Source: Patescibacteria group bacterium
GTDB taxonomy: Bacteria > Patescibacteriota > Minisyncoccia > Phycocordibacterales > Phycocordibacteraceae
NCBI GenBank assembly: GCA_038064495.1
Contig: JBBTSZ010000002.1
Coordinates: forward strand, 16,717-80,716
DNA: 64,000 nt
Direction: 5' to 3'
Shown: piece by piece, positions 4,589-64,000 of the stretch
How the letters are laid out: every line of letters begins with the position of its first letter
Position numbering within the stretch: the first letter of the stretch is position 1
The notes under the pieces: model-generated
What the model was told of the DNA's origin: nothing
What the model saw: only the letters and a program-made list of their open reading frames with translations
Databases searched by the model: none
Translations under genes and position numbers: made by a program

Positions 4589-5002
4589 TTATTTGGGAGC
4601 ATCCTGCTGATCTTTAATATCCAGTGACCAGGCCAATTCACGAAGCTTGTTCTGTGAAAGGCCGAGCTTCTGTCTTGTTTCAACAGGTGGAGCAACAGGA
4701 GCAACCTCCTCTACCTTCGGACTCGCGTCCTTCTTCCAAAGATAGAGCTTTCCCTTTGAATAGTAGGCAACGCCTGCCTCAATGATTTCTATAAAGCTTT
4801 TATTATTTATCTTATAGAACGCGAGTGCGGCAGAAAGAGCCGCAACGGGGATTGAAAGCGCTATACCAAGAAAGAGCGGTAGGTATAGAACGAAAATGGT
4901 GCACAAACCAGCACCCCCAGCGAGGTAGATGAATTGTTTGAGGGTAAACGGACCAAAAATCTTGTCCTCGACTTCAATAAATTGAGGTACCTGATACTCC
5001 AT
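4589..5002 (-). CDS. PrgI/VirB3-like small membrane protein
   Basis: 137 aa, N-terminus MEYQVPQFIEVEDKIFGPFT followed by two hydrophobic helices, positioned immediately upstream of VirB4 as in Gram-positive-type T4SS. Confidence 0.5.
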   Translation of the reverse strand: MEYQVPQFIEVEDKIFGPFTLKQFIYLAGGAGLCTIFVLYLPLFLGIALSIPVAALSAALAFYKINNKSFIEIIEAGVAYYSKGKLYLWKKDASPKVEEVAPVAPPVETRQKLGLSQNKLRELAWSLDIKDQQDAPK

Positions 5003-5050
5003 TACTCCCTAGTATATCAGGAGTTATAAGGTGCTTTGTATAAAACTACT

Positions 5051-5557
5051 CTAGTGATGGCCTCCTCCGTGCGACTTATCTTCTTTTTGACCCCCATGAC
5101 TACTACCTCCACCACCCATTTCCTTTGCTCTACCCCATGCTTGCCAAAAAAAGTGCCATAAAACACCAAAGACTCCACGACCAACACCAATCATTCGACT
5201 AAAAATACCACTATGCTCTCCGTGACTTTCATGAGATGAATGATTACTGACTTCCTCCCCACCTCTCTTACTTGTACTGCTTTCAACTACGTGATTTGGT
5301 TGTTCAGCTGATTCTGGAGTATCTGAGTCAGTAGCTTCTTCACCTCCAGCCGGACCCTCCTCTACTACTGTATATTCCCCATCGACTATTTGGTCACGAG
5401 CATCGAGGTTTCCTCGAATTTCATCGAGCCGCTCCTTTGGAGCCTCAGTATTTGCAGGTACGGGCGGCTGATACGGCACTACATCACGAGACTCACCTTC
5501 CTCAGGGTTCTGTGGTGGCTCCTCGTGGCTACCATTTCCTGGTGGGTTTTCAGACAT
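5051..5557 (-). CDS. acidic Gly/His/Glu-rich low-complexity protein with hydrophobic C-terminal segment
   Basis: ORF 168 aa, compositionally biased; within operon. Confidence 0.35.
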   Translation of the reverse strand: MSENPPGNGSHEEPPQNPEEGESRDVVPYQPPVPANTEAPKERLDEIRGNLDARDQIVDGEYTVVEEGPAGGEEATDSDTPESAEQPNHVVESSTSKRGGEEVSNHSSHESHGEHSGIFSRMIGVGRGVFGVLWHFFWQAWGRAKEMGGGGSSHGGQKEDKSHGGGHH

Positions 5558-5594
5558 GGTTCTAGCCTAGCAAGTAGTCTGCCTGATTGCACAC

Positions 5595-6686
5595 CTAGTG
5601 GAGGGGCTCACGGTACGGGTCTGCACCATAGCTTTCCACAGGATTACTAGGAGAAGCTGCTGAAACTTGCTGCGCAGGAAGAGGTGGAGCGGTAACCGCT
5701 GAGTGTGCAGCAGGTGCTTGAGGACCACCAAACCACGAAGAAGTGCTTTGTTCATGTGGATGAAGCTTTTCTTCCTCCATATCATGAGCCATCGTCCGCA
5801 TTCTTGGCTGTGAAGATTGTGGATTTGGAACGTAGGTATCCGCAGGTGGATTCGGCCTTAGGACAGCTACTTCAGGAGGGACGGGTGCTTGTAGCGGAGG
5901 GGTGACGACCGGCGGTGGTACTGACTGAGCTTGTACCGAAGGCCGAGCAGGAGGTGCCGGAACTACAGGAGGGATAGGTGCTGGAGTCACGGCCGGGGAG
6001 GAGTTCTTCAACATGGAAGGTATTTCAAGGTCATGCATTGGGACGCTAAATCTCTCCGCAAGTGACTTTGCGGAAGAAGCCGTTCCAGTAGGGGTCGAGT
6101 TAGGTGTAATTAAATTAATAGAACGTGGAGGAGTTGTCTCAGCGGGAGCTGAAGGAGCGACAGGAGCAGGGCTCGGTGGAACTATTGCCGGCGCGGGAGG
6201 AGGCGCTGCTGAAATGGCTGGAGGATATGGTGGAGTGCCGGTCGGTAAATTTTGCGGAACTTGCGGCCTCAGTGGAGGCGGAGTAACAGCTATAGGAGTA
6301 ACTACAGGCATTTTCTGAGTAATAGTTACAGGAGGTATCTCAACTGCAGGTGCCCCACTCACTGCTCCAGCCTCTTTCACTTTCTTATTAAGTGGCACGA
6401 ACACCTTCTCATTCAAATCCTTTACGAGATGTTCTGCTACGTCAGCGGGAAGTCCAAGTTCAAGTAGCCCACCATAAAACTCTGTAGGACTTACTAAACC
6501 AAGTAAAGTATTTCGAATTAGTCCCGTTACATTACCAACTATATCTACATGTAGTTGGTAGTTCTTCTGAAGATTAATAACAAAATCAAGCACAGTTTCA
6601 CCACTTAATTCTCCTTGCACAGCCAGCGGAGCCTTGCTGTAGGCTTCTAAAACTTCTTGCTCAGTGAATTGTTTCATATCAAACAC
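5595..6686 (-). CDS. proline-rich protein (N-terminal globular domain + ~250 aa P/A/V-rich region)
   Basis: ORF 363 aa; stop/start abutting neighbours. Confidence 0.5.
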   Translation of the reverse strand: MFDMKQFTEQEVLEAYSKAPLAVQGELSGETVLDFVINLQKNYQLHVDIVGNVTGLIRNTLLGLVSPTEFYGGLLELGLPADVAEHLVKDLNEKVFVPLNKKVKEAGAVSGAPAVEIPPVTITQKMPVVTPIAVTPPPLRPQVPQNLPTGTPPYPPAISAAPPPAPAIVPPSPAPVAPSAPAETTPPRSINLITPNSTPTGTASSAKSLAERFSVPMHDLEIPSMLKNSSPAVTPAPIPPVVPAPPARPSVQAQSVPPPVVTPPLQAPVPPEVAVLRPNPPADTYVPNPQSSQPRMRTMAHDMEEEKLHPHEQSTSSWFGGPQAPAAHSAVTAPPLPAQQVSAASPSNPVESYGADPYREPLH

Positions 6687-9374
6687 CTAAATAATTCCAC
6701 CCCAGCGCCTCCCTGCATCTGGATTCAAAGCTACCCCGCTGGTCATTCCAGTAAGAGCATCAAACCTAACAACTTCAGGTGAAGGTGCACCCGGTGCGGT
6801 GATGAGATTACGTATGTTGGTGATCGCAGTTCCGCTTAATTTATTTGGATCAAGAGCTGCAAGCTGTTCGCCTCGCATAGACCGAATAACATGATTCTGC
6901 TCAATAACAGAAGTAGGAAGCTTACTCACGCTCTCGTTTGTCAAAATGTTCAGTGTGTTCGGTGCATTCGCAACCGAGAAAAGATGGTTCCGGACATCGT
7001 TCATCGTGTTTGCACTCAATTTTCCAAAATCAATATTGTTAATTCGACCCGATGCAGTTAGAGCGTTCAGAGTATCTGTCTTCTTTAAGTTGTATTCAGG
7101 TATTTTCTTGAGAGCATCATCCGACATCGCATCAATGGTTACCCGAGCTCGTACCGGGTCATTGAAACGGTCATCACGAGCCTGTTGGAAGCCGTCTCGA
7201 ACGGACTGAGCGATATTTTTATTACTACCCACTTTATCGGCTTGGTCTTCCCGAACTACTGAGACAAAGTCGTAATCGCTTAATAACGAAGCACTTGCCT
7301 TCGATTGTGCAATTTGCTCAAAGCCTCGTTCACCCAATTTCTTAATCGCTGCATTAGCAGCATCACGAGCAGCAGTCCGTATCGGTGGAGCTTTCGTTGC
7401 ATCATTTGCTATGGCGAGACTCTCGCGAATCCCAACGTGGCGATTATCAAGCAGTCTTGCCTTCAGGTCCTCTGGCGTATCCTTGTACTTTAGAAGACTG
7501 CCAATTTTCTCATCAGAGAAAGCTTCAGCAACAGCTCTCCCTCCTTCTTGTACGGCATGTGATTTAAGTAGTTGTTCTTCTGAAAGCCCGTTAAGGAAAG
7601 TGGTTGTCTCTGCACTAAGAGCTCCTGCACGCGCTTCATCCTCAAGTTTTTGGAACGCCACTTCGTCGTCATACTTTTTCTTTAGCCCCTTGCCATACGT
7701 CCCGCTCTTAGCATCTGCAAAGACATGTCTAGTATCACTAAAGGTCGCGCCCTTGGATGGAATTGCTCCCGCCTTTATATCAGCGAGACCGAGTGCAGTC
7801 TGTGCAAGAGGGAGCCGTCGCGCATCAAGATTAGCACTTTGAAGCGGGCGCAGGATACGATTTACGGCAACTTGCCCGACCTTACCCCCGAACCCAGTTT
7901 TTTGCTGGAAACGTTGGAGTCCATACGCGTATCCTCCTACAGCCAGATTTGTTCCACGCGTCATGGTTCCAAACACAAGCGCACTCGCCGAGTTAACTGC
8001 AAAGTTTGAACCAAGCACACCCATACGACGTGAGGCGATGAGAGACATCATCATGAATCCGATAACAATGAAGAACAACACAAACGCTTGAAGATTTTGC
8101 GAAGCTCCAGCTACTGCCCCACCTGCGACAGCCTGCCCCAGATCACCCGTGGTACCAAGTCCAGAGCCAATCTTGATACTAATAAGAATGAGTAGCAGGT
8201 ATACCGGAGCAAAAAATGATTCGTTAAGAAGAAGACTCCACCAACGTTCAGCAAGTTTATGAAGTAAAGGCACTGCCATACCCGCAAAACCTATAGGAGA
8301 CGTCACAATTAAGAACACGAGAACAACCGCACGGCTGATAAGCATAATAGTCCCTGCGAGCAAGACAATCGCCACAATAGTGATGAGCAAAGAGTAAATC
8401 AACAAAAGAGTGATTTTCTCAAGAGGAGAACTACCTGTGGTAGAAGGGTCCGATCTAAAACCAAGAAACGTAGAACCACCGGTTAATTGCATAATCTGCC
8501 CCGAAATACCTTCATTAGCGCACGTCGTTGAGTCAGCACCAGTACAATTTGTACCAGCCTGTTCCGCAAGGACTGATGAGAAACCGTTAGCCACGTCAAT
8601 CACTGCTTCTGCAGCAAACAAACTAAAGTTAAGCAGTATCGCAAAGATAATAAGAGCAGGCAGCGCTCGCTTTGCCGTGAACTCCGACCGTTCAAGATTT
8701 AAAATAGTACTGACGCCCATGAAGATGAATCCGAATAAGAGAACTATATTGCCAACGTCTCGGAGTACTCCCCATGCAATCAAAAGACCTTCCGAGTTAC
8801 CAAAGTACTGAGCAAACTCAAATACCGTTTTGATAATGGTCCAGTTAAAAACGACACCGACAATCGTAAGAATCCATCCCGCAAGCGTAAACACTGCATA
8901 GCTAAGTGGGTAGAGTGTGACAGCAAGAAAACTATCTGCCAACCATCCAAACACGTCCGGGAATACTGAACTTGTTTCACTCGTACAACTTCCGTTCGCT
9001 GCACAGTTCGTGGTCGTACTCGCGAAATAGTTATTTTGAGAACCGGTTGAACCTAACAGTTTTCCAGAGGCATCTTTTGCAGTACACCCCTCATCCGAGA
9101 CGGCTGCTTCAGCACCACCACCAGCGGTACAGGTTGCGGTGCTACCAGCAGGATTTGTACAAGTATAGACCGTACTACCGAAACTGATCTCTGAAGTACA
9201 CGTCCAACCAGTACCGTACTTACCGGGGTTATTTGTGAGTGCCTCGGGCACGGTAGCTGCAAGGGTAATAGGGGCAACGCCAAATAAAACAAACAAGAAA
9301 GCAGTCCCCAGAAGAGCTCTACCCATCTTTTTTTGTATTAGGAAAGTGTTCACGGCAAGTGAAGCTATATACAA
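6687..9374 (-). CDS. VirB6/TrbL-like polytopic membrane protein with signal peptide and long soluble C-terminal extension
   Basis: 895 aa; N-terminal signal, Cys/Thr-rich ectodomain, then >=6 hydrophobic helices, then ~400 aa charged/alpha-helical tail; topology typical of VirB6-family channel proteins (inference). Confidence 0.5.
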   Translation of the reverse strand: MYIASLAVNTFLIQKKMGRALLGTAFLFVLFGVAPITLAATVPEALTNNPGKYGTGWTCTSEISFGSTVYTCTNPAGSTATCTAGGGAEAAVSDEGCTAKDASGKLLGSTGSQNNYFASTTTNCAANGSCTSETSSVFPDVFGWLADSFLAVTLYPLSYAVFTLAGWILTIVGVVFNWTIIKTVFEFAQYFGNSEGLLIAWGVLRDVGNIVLLFGFIFMGVSTILNLERSEFTAKRALPALIIFAILLNFSLFAAEAVIDVANGFSSVLAEQAGTNCTGADSTTCANEGISGQIMQLTGGSTFLGFRSDPSTTGSSPLEKITLLLIYSLLITIVAIVLLAGTIMLISRAVVLVFLIVTSPIGFAGMAVPLLHKLAERWWSLLLNESFFAPVYLLLILISIKIGSGLGTTGDLGQAVAGGAVAGASQNLQAFVLFFIVIGFMMMSLIASRRMGVLGSNFAVNSASALVFGTMTRGTNLAVGGYAYGLQRFQQKTGFGGKVGQVAVNRILRPLQSANLDARRLPLAQTALGLADIKAGAIPSKGATFSDTRHVFADAKSGTYGKGLKKKYDDEVAFQKLEDEARAGALSAETTTFLNGLSEEQLLKSHAVQEGGRAVAEAFSDEKIGSLLKYKDTPEDLKARLLDNRHVGIRESLAIANDATKAPPIRTAARDAANAAIKKLGERGFEQIAQSKASASLLSDYDFVSVVREDQADKVGSNKNIAQSVRDGFQQARDDRFNDPVRARVTIDAMSDDALKKIPEYNLKKTDTLNALTASGRINNIDFGKLSANTMNDVRNHLFSVANAPNTLNILTNESVSKLPTSVIEQNHVIRSMRGEQLAALDPNKLSGTAITNIRNLITAPGAPSPEVVRFDALTGMTSGVALNPDAGRRWGGII

Positions 9375-12820: not shown

Positions 12821-14743
12821 TTATATATGTATCACCCCCTCATCCTCCCGATCACCATACGTTACTTGCATAAGACCCGGATCAATATCATGTAAAAAAC
12901 TAGATGGTTCAGACATGTAGTCGGTGCCGTAAATACGCCTGACGCGCGCCATCGTGAGAATGAGGTGCGCTTTCGCTCGCGTCATTGCGACATAAAAGAG
13001 CCGGCGCTCTTCTTCTTCGTCTCGCTCCTCCTCTTGACCCATTCCTTCGTGCGGGAAGAGTCCCTCTTCCATACCCGAGACAAACACCACTTCAAACTCA
13101 AGACCCTTCGCAGCGTGCACCGTCATCAACGTCACACCCTTTGCATTTTTCTCATTCGTTTGCGGTCGGTCCAGTTCGTCTTGGTCACCTGCAAGCGCAG
13201 TATCGGCAAGGAAGGCATCAATACCTTCGGTGCCCGGGCGTGCGTCGTAGCGACTTGCGAGAGTCGCAAGTTCCTTTGCGTTCTCTAGTCGCTCGCGGTC
13301 CTCTTCCCCACCCTTAGCAAGCGTGTCTTCAATCCCAGAGAGCTGAATCACGCGACGCACGAACGCGGACGGCGCTGCGGCCCTACTTTCTTCATGGAGT
13401 GTTTGCACAAGTGATTCAAATGCTTCCACTTTCGCACGCACTGCAGGCGTCAAACCATCTTTCTTTCCTGCGGCAATTTTAGCGACCGTTACTTTTCCGA
13501 TGCCGCGCGGCGGAGATTGCACTGCTCGTACACGGTCGCTTTCGCGGGTAGGCTCTAGCGCAAGCCTGACCCATGCAAGTACATCCTTCACCTCTTTGCG
13601 GTCGAGAAAGCGCGTACCAAGAAGCCGGTACGGGATGCCCGCAGCGAGAAACGCTTCTTCAAGTGCACGCGACTGAAAGTTCGTACGGTACAGGACCGCA
13701 ATCTCTTCGGGAGGAATACCCTGACCCATAAACTCTCGCACGCTCATAGTGACACCTCGTGCTTCAAGTTCAGCCGAGTCCGATACATCAAGTCGAATAG
13801 GGTGTCCATCCGCATTGTCTGTGACGGAGCGCTTCTCTTTCCTATTCCTATTCTTCTCGATGATGGCATTACTCGCAGTCACAATAGTCTTCGTTGAGCG
13901 GTAATTGTGTTCAAGCACAATCGTTTTTGCTTCAGGGTAGGTTTCTTCAAATGCGAGTAAGTTTTCAATGGTTGCACCGCGCCAGGTGTAAATTGTTTGA
14001 TCTATATCTCCCACGACAAACAAATTTTTATGTGGAGCGGCAAGCAAGTTAGAAAGACGACCCTGTAGTTCGTTGGTGTCTTGGTACTCATCCACATGAA
14101 TGTAGGAGAAACGGTCCTGTGCACGTTTGCGGACTTCGGGATACTCTTCAAGCAGACGAACTGGTTTGACGATGAGGTCGTCGAAATCAAGAGCCTTCTC
14201 TTTTTTCAAAACATTTTCATAGTGACGCCACGCTTCGCTTGTGATGCGAGAACGAAAACTGTCCCGTCCAAATTTCGCTCGGTACTCTTCTTCGGTGTGC
14301 CCCTCCCCTTTTGCTTTGCTGATACGCGAGAGTATAAATCGTGGTGAGATTTCTTTCGGGTCTATTTCTAGAATCTTGAGCGCCTCTTTGATGGCGCGTT
14401 CTGAATCATCCCGGTCGTACACGCTGAAGTATCGCGGCACGCCCATCACTGAGCCGTAGTTCTGAAGCAGGTCGCGCCCGAGCCCATGGAAGGTGGCGAC
14501 GAACGGAAGCGGGCCGTCCTGAAGCAAGTTTCGAAGGCGCTCTTTCATCTCCCGGGCAGCTTTGTTTGTGAAGGTGACGGCAAGAATCCGCTCCGGAGGC
14601 GTCCCCTCCCGGATAAGGTGAAGGATGCGAGTGGTGAGGACTCGGGTTTTACCTGAGCCAGCTCCCGCCAGAATAGAAATAGGTCCCTCCGTCGTAAGGA
14701 CCGCTTCTTTTTGTCTGTCGTTGAGTCCTTGGAGGTAATTCAC
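12821..14743 (-). CDS. pcrA: UvrD/PcrA-family ATP-dependent DNA helicase
   Basis: Motifs AGAGSGKTRVLT, AVTFTNKAAREM; ORF extends to 14890 but conserved N-terminus begins near an in-frame GTG at 14743 (start uncertain). Confidence 0.8.
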   Translation of the reverse strand: MNYLQGLNDRQKEAVLTTEGPISILAGAGSGKTRVLTTRILHLIREGTPPERILAVTFTNKAAREMKERLRNLLQDGPLPFVATFHGLGRDLLQNYGSVMGVPRYFSVYDRDDSERAIKEALKILEIDPKEISPRFILSRISKAKGEGHTEEEYRAKFGRDSFRSRITSEAWRHYENVLKKEKALDFDDLIVKPVRLLEEYPEVRKRAQDRFSYIHVDEYQDTNELQGRLSNLLAAPHKNLFVVGDIDQTIYTWRGATIENLLAFEETYPEAKTIVLEHNYRSTKTIVTASNAIIEKNRNRKEKRSVTDNADGHPIRLDVSDSAELEARGVTMSVREFMGQGIPPEEIAVLYRTNFQSRALEEAFLAAGIPYRLLGTRFLDRKEVKDVLAWVRLALEPTRESDRVRAVQSPPRGIGKVTVAKIAAGKKDGLTPAVRAKVEAFESLVQTLHEESRAAAPSAFVRRVIQLSGIEDTLAKGGEEDRERLENAKELATLASRYDARPGTEGIDAFLADTALAGDQDELDRPQTNEKNAKGVTLMTVHAAKGLEFEVVFVSGMEEGLFPHEGMGQEEERDEEEERRLFYVAMTRAKAHLILTMARVRRIYGTDYMSEPSSFLHDIDPGLMQVTYGDREDEGVIHI

Positions 14744-14873
14744 TTGCCAACTATACCGTAAAATTGTTCTCAACAGGTGCTTTTTTAGGCGGTTGACCCT
14801 CCCTCCTCGGACGGTATACTGGCCAAGTTGATAGCTACGACTGAACGGTAGATACGGCTTATATAAGCCATAT

Positions 14874-16073
14874 TTGATTACAGACGACACTCCAGAGTTC
14901 CCCTTCTTCCTTATATTGTCTTTCTATAAAACTTTCGCTTCGGTGCTTTGCCGATTGAATCGAAATGCATATCTCGCAAGCACCCTTACCACCCTTGTGG
15001 GAGCTCTCTCGCTAGCCTCATCGCTAGCGTTTCCTATTACAACCAACGCCTATTGGTTGCCTTGGACTATATCCTTTGCCGGAAATCCAGGGGGTGAACC
15101 ACCTATCATTCACGATAGCAGCATTCCCCTCCTTCAGGCAGCAGTGAACTCGGACCCAAATCCAGAAAAGGGTGGGAGTGATATTCAACTCACCGAGGGC
15201 TCGGCGCTCATGGCCAACTCAGGCCCAGAAGGCACCCTTGCCGACATTGATATGACCTCATCTGCCGGACAAATTACCACCTACGTGGTACGTCCGGGCG
15301 ACACCATTTCCAACATCGCGAGGAATTTTGGTGTCTCCGCAAACACCATTTTGTGGGCTAACAACCTCACAACGAAGAGCAAGGTAACGCCAGGCACGAC
15401 TCTCGTTATTCTTCCGGTCTCCGGTCTTCAACACAAAGTAACAAAGGGCGAAACCCTTGCTGGTATTGCGAAGAAATTTAAAGCAGACGCAGGCGACGTT
15501 GCTTCCTATAACGGCCTCTCTGTCGGAGACGGCCTTACCGTTGGTGACATTCTCATAATTCCTGGAGGCGAACTCTCCGTTGCTTCAAGTAAAACGGCAA
15601 CGAGCGGTAAGACCAAAACCAACATTAAACAAGGTGGTGGGCTCGTCAGTATTTTGAAGAATCCCTACCGTGGTGGAAGTGGTGCTGAAATAGATGGTTA
15701 CTACACGAACCCCGTACCGGGCGGACTCCTCACCCAAGGCATCCATGGCTGGAACGGTGTTGATCTCGGTGCGCCTGCAGGTACACCGGTGTACGCAGCG
15801 GCAGGCGGAACGGTTATCGTCTCACGCGTCGGCGGATGGAACGGTGGTTACGGTAACTACATTGTTATCGATCATGGCAATGGAACCCAGACACTCTACT
15901 CCCATCTTTCAAGTGATAATGTTTCGGTAGGACAAACGGTTTCTCGTGCCGCAGCTATTGGTGCCGTAGGACACACCGGTGAAGCGACCGGAAACCATCT
16001 CCACTTTGAGGTTCGTGGTGCGCGGAATCCATTTGCGGGATGTACGGCCATGACCCACTGCTCTCCGAAGTAA
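14874..16073 (+). CDS. LysM-domain M23 family metallopeptidase (cell-wall endopeptidase)
   Basis: Two LysM-like repeats (YVVRPGDTISNIARNFG..., HKVTKGETLAGIAKKF...) and M23 motifs HxxxD/HLHFE; signal-like segment; start may be an in-frame TTG at 14955. Confidence 0.85.
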   Translation: MITDDTPEFPFFLILSFYKTFASVLCRLNRNAYLASTLTTLVGALSLASSLAFPITTNAYWLPWTISFAGNPGGEPPIIHDSSIPLLQAAVNSDPNPEKGGSDIQLTEGSALMANSGPEGTLADIDMTSSAGQITTYVVRPGDTISNIARNFGVSANTILWANNLTTKSKVTPGTTLVILPVSGLQHKVTKGETLAGIAKKFKADAGDVASYNGLSVGDGLTVGDILIIPGGELSVASSKTATSGKTKTNIKQGGGLVSILKNPYRGGSGAEIDGYYTNPVPGGLLTQGIHGWNGVDLGAPAGTPVYAAAGGTVIVSRVGGWNGGYGNYIVIDHGNGTQTLYSHLSSDNVSVGQTVSRAAAIGAVGHTGEATGNHLHFEVRGARNPFAGCTAMTHCSPK

Positions 16074-16101
16074 AAATCCCCTCGCATGAGGGGATTTTTA
16101 T
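16072..16101. terminator. bidirectional intrinsic terminator between convergent genes
   Basis: AAAAATCCCCTCGCATGAGGGGATTTTTA. Confidence 0.6.
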
Positions 16102-17642
16102 TCAAACCCAAACAACCCACGTGGCCGATACTGCAACGCTTCAAGAATATGAGATGGCTCAACCTTCTCGCTACCCGCGAGGTCCGCAATTGTGCGGGCG
16201 ACCCGCATCACTCGGTGATACGCACGCGGAGAAAGCTGTAATTTTGTTGCCGCAGATAGAAGCGTACTCCGGGCTCCGTCCGTAAATGCTCCAACTTTGT
16301 CTAATTCTTTTGCTGAAAGCAATGCGTTGCTCATGGAGTCACTTCCATGACGCTTTCGCGCAAGCTTTCGTGCGGAAAGCACCCGCTTACGTACGGTAAC
16401 GGAGGATTCTCCTTCAGTTAAGCTCGCCAAATCTTCATGTGCTACGTGTGGCACCTCAACCCACAAATCAAGACGGTCAGCGATAGGTCGTGAAATCTTT
16501 CGTGCTTGCTTGCGGGCAGCCCTCACCGCAACGTCACTATCAGCTGAAAGCGTGTCTGCAGGATTCATCGCCGCAACGAGCATACTGTCTGCCGGAAAGG
16601 TGATGGTTGCACGTGCGCGCGACACGGTGACCACCTTGTCTTCCAGTGGCTGACGCAGTGCCTCAAGGGTGCGCGCATCAAATTCCGGAAACTCATCGAG
16701 AAATAAAACCCCTTTGTGTGCGAGGGTTACTTCACCGGCACGTGGATACGCTCCCCCACCCACCATCGCCGTATGGGAAATCGTGTGATGCGGCGAACGA
16801 AACGGCGGATGGCGCACGGGCCCATCTGAAAGGGTGCCTGCTGTTGAATGGATAGCAGTAACCTCAAGCACCTCGTCCTCGGTTAAGGGTGGCAAGATAC
16901 CGGAAAGTGCACGCGCAAGCATCGTCTTTCCGGTTCCAGGTGGTCCATACAACACGAGGTTATGCCGTCCGGCTGCTGCTATTTCAAGCGCACGCTTCGC
17001 ACTCTCCTGCCCTTTTATCTCAGCAAGGTTCAGTACAATCGGTGCCTCTTCAGTTACCACAGTACGCTCTTTTTCTTCCAAAAGCTTATCGCCTTTCAAA
17101 TGGGCAACGAGCGCGCTAAGGGTCTCTGGCGCGTACACGCGAATGCCCTGTGCAAGAAGTGCTTCGTGTACATTTCCAGGCGGTACAAAGACACTCGTAT
17201 AACCGGCACCTTTCGCTGCAACCACTTGAGGTAATACACCGCGCACCGTGCGTAGCTTTCCATCAAGAGAGAGTTCTCCACAAAACAAAACGGGTTCTTT
17301 CGGAATAGATAGTTCCCCGGCAGCGGCAAGGTAGCAAAGCGCGAGCGCGACATCATAGTGCGAACCCTCTTTTTTCAAGTCCGCAGGAGAAAGCGAGAGT
17401 ACAATACGCCGGTTCTCTGCTTTCGGAGATTTAAATCCACTGTGACGAATCGCAGCTGCAATACGGTCCCGAGCTTCTTCAACAGCTTTATCTGCAAGAC
17501 CGACTATGGAAAAGGAGTGAAGACCCCGCGTAAGGTCAGCCTCTATCGTTACGAGCTCCGCCTTCGCGCCAACAGGCTGGGCCGCGTACAAGGAACCATA
17601 CCCATGGGTTTCAATCTTGCGAGCGGTGGGAGAAGCGGCCAC
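16098..17642 (-). CDS. comM: YifB/ComM family Mg-chelatase-like AAA+ ATPase
   Basis: Walker [11 protein letters not shown], ChlI-type motifs, N-terminal Lon-like domain. Confidence 0.85.
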
Positions 17643-60451: not shown

Positions 60452-60662
60452 GCTTGACCTTTCATTCTACGCCGTGTAACTTTACTTCTAACGCGAGTAC
60501 GGCGCTCTTTTCAATGTTTTTCGGCCATAGGGACGAACAACTGCTGGAAAGGCGCTGCGCGGGGAACGCTTAGCGCCTTGGTCGTCTAGCCTCAGCTTCA
60601 CAGCTGGAGCCGGACAGGCGCGGCAAAAGTTATTACTTTTAGCTACCAGTAATTTTACGCTT

Positions 60663-61862
60663 ATGGCAGATGCATTTGATCGCAGCAAGCCGCACATGAA
60701 CGTAGGAACCATCGGTCACGTGGACCATGGTAAGACCACGCTCACGGCTTCTATCCTCAATGTGCTCAATCTTAACTCCGCAGCAGGCTACAAGGCCCGC
60801 GCTGAGAAGGTTGAGAACATCGACAACGCTCCAGAAGAGAAAGCTCGTGGAATCACGATCGCTCTTCACCACTCTGAGTACGAGACACCGAATCGTCACT
60901 ACGCTCACATTGACGCTCCGGGTCACGCTGACTACATCAAGAACATGATTACGGGTGCTGCCCAGATGGATGGTGCAGTACTTGTAGTCGCCGCGACCGA
61001 CGGCGCAATGCCCCAGACGCGCGAGCACATCCTTCTTGCAAAGCAGGTGGGTGTACCTCGTCTCATTGTTTTCCTTAACAAAGTGGACATGGTTGATGAT
61101 AAGGACATGGTGGATCTCGTTGAAGAGGAAATCCGCGACCTTCTCGCCAAGCAGGGCTTCGATAAGGACACTCCTGTCGTGAAGGGTTCTGGTCTCAAGG
61201 CGCTTGAGGCTACTGACGCTTCTGACGAATGGGCTCTTAAGGTAAAGGAACTCGTCGACACGATGGATTCTTACTTCCCAGACCCAGTTCGTGAGACGGA
61301 CAAGCCGTTCCTTATGCCAATCGAGGACATCTTCTCAATTGAAGGACGCGGAACCGTCGTTACCGGCCGTATCGAACGAGGTATGGTCAAGGTAGGTGAA
61401 GAAGTTGAAATTGTCGGCCTTCAGCCAACAACCAAGACGACCATCACCGGTATTGAAATGTTCAACAAGCAGCTTCAGGAAGGACAGGCTGGCGACAACG
61501 CAGGTATCCTTCTTCGTGGAACGAAGAAGGAGGACGTGCATCGCGGTCAGGTGCTTGCGAAGACCGGTACGGTTACTCCGCACACTGACTTTGAAGCAGA
61601 GGTCTACATCCTTTCTAAGGATGAGGGTGGTCGTCACACACCATTCTTCTCTGGCTACAAGCCACAATTCTACATCCGAACAACGGACGTTACTGGAGAG
61701 GTAACGCTCGCTGAAGGAAAGGAAATGGTTATGCCAGGAGACACGGTTACCTTCAAGGTAAAGCTCACGGCACCTATCGCACTTGAGGACAATACCCGCT
61801 TCGCTATTCGCGAAGGAGGTAAGACCGTTGGTGCTGGTGTGGTGACGAAGATCACTGCGTAA
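60663..61862 (+). CDS. tuf: elongation factor Tu
   Basis: [19 protein letters not shown] motifs. Confidence 0.95.
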
Positions 61863-61885
61863 AATAGCCTGCTACTATTACTCGT

Positions 61886-62248: not shown

Positions 62249-62395
62249 GGAAGTGCTTCCAAAAGTTCTCCACTGACTTTGTTATCGTTCGGAAAATATC
62301 TTTCACCGTACCAGCACGTACGACTCAAGATATTTTCCTCCGACGCCTCGTCATTGAAGTTTTTTGAAAACACTTAGTAAAGAAGAAACAAAAGC

Positions 62396-62427
62396 AAAAC
62401 CGCCCGAAAGGGCGGTTTTGCTTTTGA
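62396..62427 (+). terminator. intrinsic terminator after rpsJ
   Basis: AAAACCGCCCGAAAGGGCGGTTTTGCTTTTG. Confidence 0.7.
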
Positions 62428-62488
62428 CTTTTGTAATACCTTGTTGTATAAAGCCGTTGTGCAGCCAGGTCTGCAGAAAGGGTTTGAG

Positions 62489-62938
62489 ATGTCTAATTTT
62501 TTGAAGTGGAGCACCAGCTTCACCATTCTGTACCTTATCGCTGTCGTGTTCGGATACCTCACCGGAGATCTCCTTCGTGGCATCGTTTTAGCTGTTCTCA
62601 CAATCATCGGGTTAGCACTCACTGGTGCACTTGCGTGGCCGGAATTACACATCGGCTTCGCAAGCTGTTGCGGGGTGCTCGTCGCCAGATCGGCAACAGC
62701 TGCATTGAATCCTGTGCTGTCGCCGACTTCTCTCGAGATCGGTATTGGGGTCGCGTGCGCAATTGTGGGAAGCGTTTGTGGTTTTGTGGCGCTCTACCTT
62801 GCCTCGTTCAATCCTGTGAAGGCTGAAGACGAGAAGGGCTGGGACTGCTTTGCCGCGTCCTTGCCGTTCGGTGTCGGCACCATCCTCGGCGGGGCAATCC
62901 TTCTCTATCGGCGCTGGTACAAGCCGGCTACGGTCTGA
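62489..62938 (+). CDS. hypothetical polytopic membrane protein (4 TM) inserted between rpsJ and rplC
   Basis: ORF (track start 62441; Met at 62489 precedes first TM). Confidence 0.5.
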   Translation: MSNFLKWSTSFTILYLIAVVFGYLTGDLLRGIVLAVLTIIGLALTGALAWPELHIGFASCCGVLVARSATAALNPVLSPTSLEIGIGVACAIVGSVCGFVALYLASFNPVKAEDEKGWDCFAASLPFGVGTILGGAILLYRRWYKPATV

Positions 62939-62955
62939 TCCAAGCAATCGAACTC

Positions 62956-62995
62956 AAACGGGCGCGGAGAAATCCGCGCCCGTTTTATTTTCCTC
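62956..62995 (+). terminator. intrinsic terminator
   Basis: AAACGGGCGCGGAGAAATCCGCGCCCGTTTTATTTT. Confidence 0.7.
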
Positions 62996-63023
62996 CGTCT
63001 AAAAGGCCGGCTTTACGTTATAT

Positions 63024-63051
63024 AAAAGGCGGGACTTGCGTCCCGCCTTCG
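63024..63051 (-). terminator. intrinsic terminator for the minus-strand small gene
   Basis: On minus strand AAGGCGGGACGCAAGTCCCGCCTTTTATAT. Confidence 0.6.
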
Positions 63052-63073
63052 TCTTTGCGACGACCGCGTGTCG

Positions 63074-63265
63074 TCAGAGTGTTTCGGTGCTGAGCCAGCA
63101 TTCGGAGCGAATGTCTGCCCAACCCTCGGATTGAATGTCACCACCCCATCCTTCGCGGATTCCGCCATGACCTTCGCTGATGCCGGCGCTTCCTCCATCT
63201 CCGATGAAAACACTACCACCGTCGGATCTTGTGGGACGCTTGGTCCCACCCCATCCTTCGCGCAT
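63074..63265 (-). CDS. Gly/Trp-rich repeat-containing small protein (63 aa; REGWGG x2, SEGHGG, SEGWAD)
   Basis: Strong SD GAAAGGAG 7 nt upstream of ATG (63263-63265, minus); own terminator; nucleotide-level repeats CCACCCCATCCTTCGCG. Confidence 0.5.
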   Translation of the reverse strand: MREGWGGTKRPTRSDGGSVFIGDGGSAGISEGHGGIREGWGGDIQSEGWADIRSECWLSTETL

Positions 63266-63416
63266 GATTTTCTCCTTTCTGACCGCACAATCGGGTCTGT
63301 TCGAAGCATAGCACCAGAATTTGCATTTGGGAGGCACCACCTGTATAGTCCCTAAGTCGCTATGTACGAGCTTTTGGCTCGGACCAATGGCCGGGAGAGC
63401 TCTCTGGAGCTCCTAA

Positions 63417-63450
63417 CCGCGCTGTTGTACAGCGCGATTTCTATTTTTAC
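63417..63450 (+). promoter_or_regulatory. hairpin + U-tract ending 3 nt before rplC start codon (attenuator/leader structure)
   Basis: CCGCGCTGTTGTACAGCGCGATTTCTATTTTTAC then TGC ATG. Confidence 0.4.
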
Positions 63451-63453
63451 TGC

Positions 63454-64000
63454 ATGAAATTTATCCTCGCCCGAAAAGGTCGCATGACTCAAGTCTTCGA
63501 AGAAGATGGTCGTGTTAATGCTGGAACCGTTCTTACGGTAGGCCAGAACATTGTCACGCAGGTGAAGAGTGCGACCACGGATGGCTACGGAGCGGTTCAG
63601 ATTGGCTACGAGGTTCAGAAACTCGCGCGCGTGAACAAGCCTCAGGCAACGAAGGCATTTAAAGTACTCAAGGAATTCCGTACGGATACCCCAGAAGCGT
63701 TTACTGTCGGCAGTGAACTCACGATTGATACCTTCGCTGAAGGCGAGACCATTCAGGTTGCCGGTACCTCAAAGGGTAAGGGCTTCCAGGGTGTCGTGAA
63801 GCGTCATGGTTTCAAGGGAGGTCGACGTTCTCACGGCCAGAAGCACTCAGAGCGTGAGGCTGGTTCTATCGGCGGTGGTCCTGGACGTGCTGGTGGTCGC
63901 GTGACCCTCGGCATGAAGATGGCTGGGCGTATGGGTGGCGACCGTGTTACGGTAACGAATCTCAGGGTGCTCCGCGTTGACCCGGCAAACAGCCAGATAA
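63454..64000 (+). CDS. rplC: 50S ribosomal protein L3 (3'-truncated by window edge)
   Basis: MKFILARKGRMTQVFEEDGRV...VAGTSKGKGFQGVVKRH... Confidence 0.9.
   Translation, partial: MKFILARKGRMTQVFEEDGRVNAGTVLTVGQNIVTQVKSATTDGYGAVQIGYEVQKLARVNKPQATKAFKVLKEFRTDTPEAFTVGSELTIDTFAEGETIQVAGTSKGKGFQGVVKRHGFKGGRRSHGQKHSEREAGSIGGGPGRAGGRVTLGMKMAGRMGGDRVTVTNLRVLRVDPANSQI

Follow-up and report, generated by a model that had tools for sequence, protein, structure and literature searches.

A putative gene for a glycine- and tryptophan-repeat micro-protein in the rpsJ–rplC spacer of a Paceibacteria-like bacterium

The spacer between the ribosomal protein genes rpsJ and rplC of an uncultured groundwater bacterium contains a 63-codon open reading frame (ORF), which raises the question of whether this ORF is a genuine gene and, if so, what kind of product it makes. 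The DNA that we analyzed (the window) is a 64-kb stretch of a genome that is Paceibacteria-like (CPR); exact matches to it occur in a contig of a Hainich groundwater metagenome and in an NCBI MAG, and the closest relatives of its S10 protein are from Paceibacteria, Parcubacteria, and Kaiserbacteria MAGs. A sequence-only reading had described the ORF as encoding a Gly/Trp-rich repeat peptide with a strong ribosome-binding site and had speculated that the peptide and a neighboring four-transmembrane (4-TM) protein resemble a bacteriocin/immunity pair. With modest confidence, we favor the view that the ORF is a genuine gene, monocistronic and lineage-restricted, and that its product is a soluble, disordered micro-protein with Gly/Trp repeats that works intracellularly.

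Architecture of the small gene

The gap between rpsJ and rplC in the window is 1.2 kb long (62249-63453) and holds five features: the terminator after rpsJ, the 149-aa membrane ORF with its terminator, the small unit, the rplC promoter, and a structured leader before rplC. The small unit with the 63-aa ORF is monocistronic and on the minus strand (Table 1). The translated ORF, with the TGA counted in its coordinates, is exactly the peptide quoted in the sequence-only reading. Its placement antisense to the ribosomal operon is true only loosely, since the spacer that holds the ORF is bounded by terminators and no ribosomal gene lies opposite the ORF. The 4-TM gene, said to lie opposite, is a membrane ORF next door on the plus strand, convergent with the small gene and not overlapping it.

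Table 1. Features of the rpsJ–rplC region and of the viral candidate (window positions unless another contig is named)
Feature	Position	Strand	Remarks
tuf	60663-61862		gene at window end
rpsJ/S10	61886-62248		gene at window end
Bidirectional terminator after rpsJ	62389-62426
Terminator half-copies flanking the 4-TM cassette, GAAAGGGCGGTTTT and AAAAGGCCGGCTTT	62405-62420 and 63001-63019
149-aa membrane ORF (4-TM gene)	62489-62938	plus	4-5 hydrophobic segments
Terminator of the 149-aa membrane ORF	62956-62985
Intrinsic terminator GGCGGGAC-GCAA-GTCCCGCC (3' arm also given as GUCCCGCC), then UUUUAUAU	63018-63049	minus	inverted-repeat search and fold
Hairpin GACGAC-ACGCG-GUCGUC	63059-63075	minus	5' arm starts within the UGA stop; identical in L004
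63-codon ORF plus TGA, MREGWGGTKRPTRSDGGSVFIGDGGSAGISEGHGGIREGWGGDIQSEGWADIRSECWLSTETL	63074-63265	minus	translation identical to the quoted peptide
Four tandem 21-24-nt repeat units, ISEGHGG / IREGWGG / DIQSEGWA / DIRSECWL	63095-63181	minus	repeat analysis
Repeat unit IGDGGSAG, codons 21-28, 24 nt (placement ambiguous by 3 nt)	63179-63205	minus	missing in L004
Fifth repeat copy, MREGWGG, first codons of the ORF	63246-63265	minus	95% nucleotide identity to the IREGWGG unit
Shine-Dalgarno GAAAGGAG	63272-63279	minus	6 nt (AAAATC) before ATG; identical in L004
Putative extended -10 promoter element of the small gene, TGCTATGCT	63305-63313	minus	read from the sequence
rplC promoter, sigma-70-like	TTTGCA 63320-63325, 18-nt spacer, TATAGT 63344-63349		back to back with the putative promoter of the small gene
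rplC/L3	starts 63454
Predicted tryptic peptides of the putative 63-aa product, e.g., SDGGSVFIGDGGSAGISEGHGGIR and EGWGGDIQSEGWADIR
Viral 42-aa ORF, MREGWGGHIMPIKDDIDSGTLFIEGWGGMREGHGGIDGGSAF	L105 10001-10129		SD-led, preceded by GAAAGGGA

The Shine-Dalgarno (SD) sequence is present as claimed, with a spacer of 6 nt rather than 7. The claims of an intrinsic terminator belonging to the gene (a GC-rich hairpin with a U-run) and of internal nucleotide repeats were also borne out: the 20-21-nt repeat units recur at intervals of 21, 24, and 84 nt, all divisible by three. The putative extended -10 element of the small gene was not reported by a promoter consensus scan; it lies 34 bp from the -10 element of rplC, so that the -35 regions of the two genes overlap. 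A terminator consensus scan did not list the hairpin at 63018-63049, we think because extension of the stem into A-T pairs consumes the T-run. The stem of this terminator is palindromic and could act on plus-strand transcripts too.

The 64-kb window contains 85 instances of AGGAG followed by a start codon, and the upstream regions of tuf, rpsJ, and rplC (60633-60662, 61856-61885, and 63424-63453) lack an SD, so the SD alone is weak evidence for a gene. It is in combination that the features exceed chance: the ORF is intergenic, has an SD with an ATG and a terminator, and is retained in a diverged relative. Among the 48 long ORFs of the window, only 7-14 have an SD-like motif near a possible start; strong SDs are found on the accessory spacer ORFs of the window and of two related contigs, L015 and L034. 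The 63-aa ORF was called by a gene caller in one assembly (ENA contig). Its codon-usage score is 0.18 per codon, with a mean of 0.27 (sd 0.14) for real genes and -0.55 for off-frames, and codon usage leaves the three open frames at this place unseparated.

Comparison with a diverged relative

The sole informative comparator was one diverged relative, L004, a 973-bp contig of the NCBI assembly GCA_041643195.1. The S10 proteins of L004 and the window are identical, with 17 synonymous differences between the genes (pS 0.197), and the tuf fragment has a pS of 0.164. The SD, ATG, stop, and both hairpin stems of the small gene are identical in L004, where the ORF is open at 55 aa. The only indel inside the ORF is the 24-nt unit IGDGGSAG; such a frame-preserving indel is weaker evidence than it appears, since it amounts to one repeat unit.

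Within the ORF, the window and L004 differ by 13 substitutions. Read in the 63-aa minus-strand frame, 7 are synonymous and 6 non-synonymous, giving a pN/pS of 0.24 (pS 0.19, pN 0.047), and this pS matches the neutral benchmark of S10 and tuf. In both other open frames, the 98-aa frame on the minus strand and the 95-aa frame on the plus strand, 3 substitutions are synonymous and 10 non-synonymous, with pN/pS values of 1.14 and 1.18, respectively. Because 11 of the 13 substitutions are transitions, the binomial test of the synonymous excess, whose naive P of 0.013 is too optimistic for ignoring the transition bias, was replaced by a Monte Carlo test that kept the transition/transversion mix; this gave P ~0.05 for the pre-specified 63-aa frame and 0.13-0.16 when any frame was allowed. 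The comparison of synonymous and non-synonymous changes, which had been proposed as a check of the reading frame, thus favors the 63-aa frame over its rivals moderately, as far as one pair of sequences can indicate, and agrees with the earlier view that the opposite-strand 95-aa ORF, which has no SD, is the less likely of the two.

All 13 substitutions fall between codons 6 and 35. Relative to L004, and at a neutral divergence of ~0.19, no substitution is seen in the 5' UTR, in the last 28 codons, or in the 3' hairpins except for the inverted terminator loop. This clustering could reflect constraint at the nucleotide or RNA level or a recombination mosaic, and together with the strong minus-strand fold it keeps a non-coding or dual-function explanation alive.

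L004 keeps the small ORF region but lacks the membrane gene, and its rpsJ terminator abuts the post-cassette sequence. On either side of the 4-TM cassette of the window (~62421-63000) lies an imperfect repeat, in direct orientation, of the 3' half of the rpsJ terminator, and L004 has one such half-copy and no cassette, which suggests that the cassette may have been inserted at, or deleted between, terminator hairpins. The terminator loop of the small gene reads TTGC in the window (63036-63039) and GCAA in L004 (731-734) on identical stems, so the palindromic hairpin is inverted between the two; in the window, the small-gene transcript bears the GNRA-type loop, and in L004 the rpsJ strand bears it.

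Variability of the rpsJ–rplC spacer

In 66 of 80 related GTDB species, S10 and L3 are both present on the fetched stretch, and none of these 66 encodes the 63-aa peptide or the membrane protein there. The length of their rpsJ–rplC spacers ranges from 13 to 3556 nt, and the ORFs inside are unrelated. Because length and ORF content vary in this way, the spacer is an insertion hotspot and both the small gene and the membrane gene are accessory; in this clade, accessory cassettes land at the rpsJ–rplC junction. In L015-L094, products encoded in the spacer include an SDR-like 231-aa protein and a sugar-transferase-like protein, along with membrane proteins and many orphans. As rplC has its own promoter, the S10 cluster is divided between rpsJ and rplC. 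The ribosomal-protein cluster of the same organism (L002) is broken up at more points (4984-5847, 8250-8519, and 14392-16551): an NlpC/P60 gene is inserted between rpsG and fusA, an 89-aa orphan between fusA and tuf, and a 275-aa orphan with NUDIX and DUF3298 genes between rplB and rpsS.

Homology searches and positional analogues

A homology search for GWGG-repeat peptides had also been proposed; the protein searches yielded no homologue, and one borderline viral ORF was found. A word-indexed search of 5.8 billion proteins gave no homologue of the 63-aa peptide, and exhaustive phmmer against 1.84 billion representatives gave no genuine one; three phmmer matches to tandem-repeat proteins of ~700 aa were rejected, as their scores were repeat-inflated. 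The peptide had no match in Pfam, NCBIfam, PADLOC, PHROGs, or PDB, tblastn against GenBank phages and plasmids and a genome-collection scan both found nothing, and the exact 63-aa sequence is absent from a 15-billion-protein collection. ORFs this short are often missed by gene callers. Nine human-gut loci from a metagenome scan lie inside an unrelated 316-aa protein and were discarded as artefacts of the seed ISEGHGGI. The 149-aa membrane protein has no homologue either.

At the equivalent place, L015 and L034 carry a small SD-led ORF on the minus strand (43 and 46 aa, respectively) with its own terminator. In L015 (TGCTATAGT) and L034 (TGCTACGAT), as in the window, the ATG is preceded at 39-40 nt by an extended -10-like element, TGCTA.., and both peptides are likewise acidic and hydrophilic. 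Shuffling gave P 0.005 for window and L015, which rests on one 9-aa motif, IGDGGS(A/S)GI, that is deleted in L004, and P 0.35 for window and L034. With no significant similarity beyond the 9-aa motif, the two are treated as positional analogues rather than as established homologues. In species of the L034 type (region 2467-2765 of L034, equal to L095 3001-3699), the 46-aa ORF is divergent and has its own terminator, and a separately promoted 142-aa gene is next on the same strand. Nine contigs from several samples share exactly the same DNA for the 46-aa protein.

Through a seeded scan of IMG/VR, we found one contig with a candidate relative, IMGVR_UViG_3300020119_000042 (L105; 63% GC). Its 42-aa ORF (MREGWGG..EGWGG.REGHGG) is collinear with the window and L004 peptides at ~50% identity, and the conserved residues use different codons, which suggests a protein-level similarity. 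The contig is phage-like and has a tail-fibre-like gene, and the ORF sits just downstream of a lysis cassette that we read as a GH108-type endolysin, holins, and a spanin. With the seeded heptapeptide left out, composition-preserving shuffles gave P 0.0004-0.0013 per candidate, which over the 77 seeded candidates becomes ~0.03-0.1; by our own estimate, a plain BLAST E-value in a database of that size would not be significant. Seven related viral contigs lack the ORF, and GenBank contains no phage related to this contig. Other viral contigs that match the DNA pattern EG[WH]GGxREG[WH]GG do so off-frame within large GC-rich genes and were rejected. The match is borderline, and judged by sequence we give true homology of the viral ORF to the 63-aa peptide about an even chance.

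Predicted product and the favored explanation

The 63-aa peptide has a pI of 4.68, a GRAVY of -0.68, and 10 acidic against 6 basic residues; 16 of its 63 codons specify Gly and 4 specify Trp. We found no double-glycine (LSxxELxxIxGG-type) or Sec leader and no hydrophobic h-region at its N-terminus (MREGWGGTKRPTRS), and no membrane, hydrophobic, or cationic segment in the whole peptide. Its AlphaFold model has a pLDDT of 55 and contains no secondary structure.

Under the explanation that we favor, transcription would start from the extended -10 promoter that lies back to back with that of rplC, a 5' UTR of ~30 nt bearing the canonical SD would direct translation of the 63-aa peptide, and the transcript would end at the gene's own hairpin terminator. 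The predicted product would be acidic, hydrophilic, Gly/Trp-rich, and unstructured, built of 7-8-residue (R/S)EG(W/H)GG repeats. It would most likely act intracellularly as a disordered binding peptide. The small gene is independent of the neighboring 4-TM gene, which is a cassette of its own, and is most likely accessory, lodged in the hypervariable hotspot between rpsJ and rplC.

Alternative explanations

That the unit is transcribed but works as an RNA, or through transcription itself, with the ORF incidental, is possible and is the alternative that we take most seriously. It could be a structured small RNA, or a module of divergent promoter and bidirectional terminator that would shield the promoter and leader of rplC against transcription reading through from rpsJ or the cassette, or that would compete with the rplC promoter. 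The minus-strand fold is much stronger than that of shuffled sequences (z = -4.8 for the full unit, -2.4 for the ORF taken alone, and -0.7 for the plus strand), and the substitution-free 5' UTR, 3' third of the ORF, and hairpins, the close -10 elements with overlapping -35 regions, and an architecture kept across L015, L034, and the window when the peptide sequence is not all fit this explanation. Against it, the substitutions favor third codon positions of the ORF frame (7/13), the repeat periods are all multiples of three, the possible viral relative is alike in amino acids but not in codons, and the outer pairs of a hairpin at 63224-63256 are broken in L004 by changes that are not compensated. 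Rfam offers no family for the unit either: only tRNAs reached the gathering score in the window, and with E up to 10 the matches in 62250-63470 were far below it and centered on terminator and stop-codon hairpins (62390-62430, 62956-62985, and 63016-63105), with nothing in 63106-63470. A coding but different use of the same DNA is unlikely. The 98-aa minus frame (63013-63309) and the 95-aa plus frame (63068-63355) are both stop-free in the window and L004, their codon-usage scores (0.18 and 0.12) are coding-like, and gene finders chose the 98-aa frame on long contigs in two to three assemblies. The pN/pS values above speak against both, and neither has a homologue or a Pfam match; the 98-aa frame must read through the stop-proximal hairpin and the terminator, and in L004 its C-terminus is replaced by read-through into the end of rpsJ, while the 95-aa frame starts at a GTG without SD and crosses the rplC promoter.

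The bacteriocin/immunity pair, which the sequence-only reading had itself flagged as speculative, did not hold up, and we consider a Gly-rich bacteriocin with an adjacent 4-TM immunity protein very unlikely. A small Gly-rich peptide does adjoin a small polytopic membrane protein, and both are orphans in an accessory region. However, L004 has the peptide gene without the membrane gene, the two genes are convergent with two terminators between them, and the acidic, leaderless peptide has none of the hydrophobic or cationic segments expected of such a product. No C39-peptidase/ABC exporter or modification enzyme is encoded within 10 kb; the genes within that distance on each side encode ribosomal proteins, EF-G, EF-Tu, NlpC/P60, NUDIX, DUF3298, and metallo-beta-lactamase-fold proteins. 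No bacteriocin model in Pfam or NCBIfam was matched, nor was anything in PADLOC or PHROGs. The least probable of the explanations considered is that the ORF encodes the leader peptide of a transcription attenuator responsive to the supply of Gly or Trp. Its Gly and Trp codons and the two hairpins, one of them the terminator, directly after the stop recall such a leader, but no co-oriented gene follows on the minus strand, where only the antisense of the membrane gene or rpsJ lies downstream, inspection of sequence and fold revealed no pairing in competition with the terminator stem, and 63 codons are long for a leader peptide.

Relation to known systems

What is novel about the favored micro-protein is its sequence family; orphan small ORFs in variable hotspots are a familiar kind of object. 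Orphan small proteins of ~50 aa, found as accessory genes or phage "morons", share with it a location in a variable hotspot, a short monocistronic unit that has a promoter, SD, and terminator of its own, the lack of a family assignment, and the tendency to be missed or mis-framed by gene callers, and the possible relative here lies directly after the lysis cassette of a phage-like contig. They form a descriptive class rather than a family, so no function can be transferred from them to the small gene, which is known from sequence. Colicin V-type Gly-rich bacteriocins and microcins are similar in small size, high Gly content, and a neighboring small polytopic membrane protein. They differ in having a double-glycine leader; the peptide here is leaderless, acidic, and hydrophilic, with no exporter nearby and with genes that are convergent and separately terminated.

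Some small RNAs have a dual function and also encode a peptide, such as SgrS/SgrT, RNAIII/delta-haemolysin, and SR1/SR1P. The unit here resembles them in its ~280-nt transcript with its own promoter and terminator, its structure (z = -4.8), its short ORF, and its parts that are more conserved in nucleotides than synonymous sites are; it differs in that no target complementarity or RNA family was identified and the ORF takes up ~70% of the transcript. In eukaryotes, GW/WG repeats serve as the "Argonaute hook" of the GW182/TNRC6 family. The peptide likewise has Gly-flanked Trp in a disordered, repeat-rich, acidic context, with three GW motifs (two EGWGG and one EGWAD). The likeness is compositional only, as the peptide is bacterial and 63 aa long, shows no homology, and no Argonaute gene was seen in the window.

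If translated, the gene adds a small protein mis-framed by annotation pipelines to the inventory of the poorly understood CPR/Patescibacteria. As a hypothetical small protein without inferable function, it is of modest importance alone. A Gly-rich peptide next to a membrane protein is here no functional pair, and one related contig sufficed to separate the two genes. It is a speculative and rather improbable extension that the peptide would be the first recognized member of a mobile family of (R/S)EG(W/H)GG-repeat micro-proteins, shared by CPR bacteria and phages of unrelated GC-rich hosts and missed by standard gene calling, whose disordered Gly/Trp "hook" may play a role in phage–host conflict, e.g., through binding to and blocking a host or defence protein.

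A structured RNA leader upstream of rplC

Directly upstream of rplC, on the plus strand, lies a conserved structured RNA leader (63350-63452, with its promoter at 63320-63349), which is also found in L015 (5112-5212), L022, L035, L016, L018, L034, L030, and others. It consists of an enclosing helix, a hairpin of variable sequence, an invariant core (GGACCAATGGCC), and a hairpin resembling a terminator, with a U-run that ends ~15 nt before the ATG. Rfam yielded nothing for it, even with E-values of up to 10 allowed. We built a covariance model from 12 sequences; besides the window, it hit 27 of the loci from the 80 related species, each time directly next to rplC. In these matches, 95% of cells are paired, against 30-46% in slid controls, and compensatory changes occur in 11 of 17 pairs. 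On this sequence evidence, the leader is a candidate for a new autoregulatory attenuator of the ribosomal-protein (L4/L3) type in Paceibacteria, and it is probably more interesting than the 63-aa peptide.
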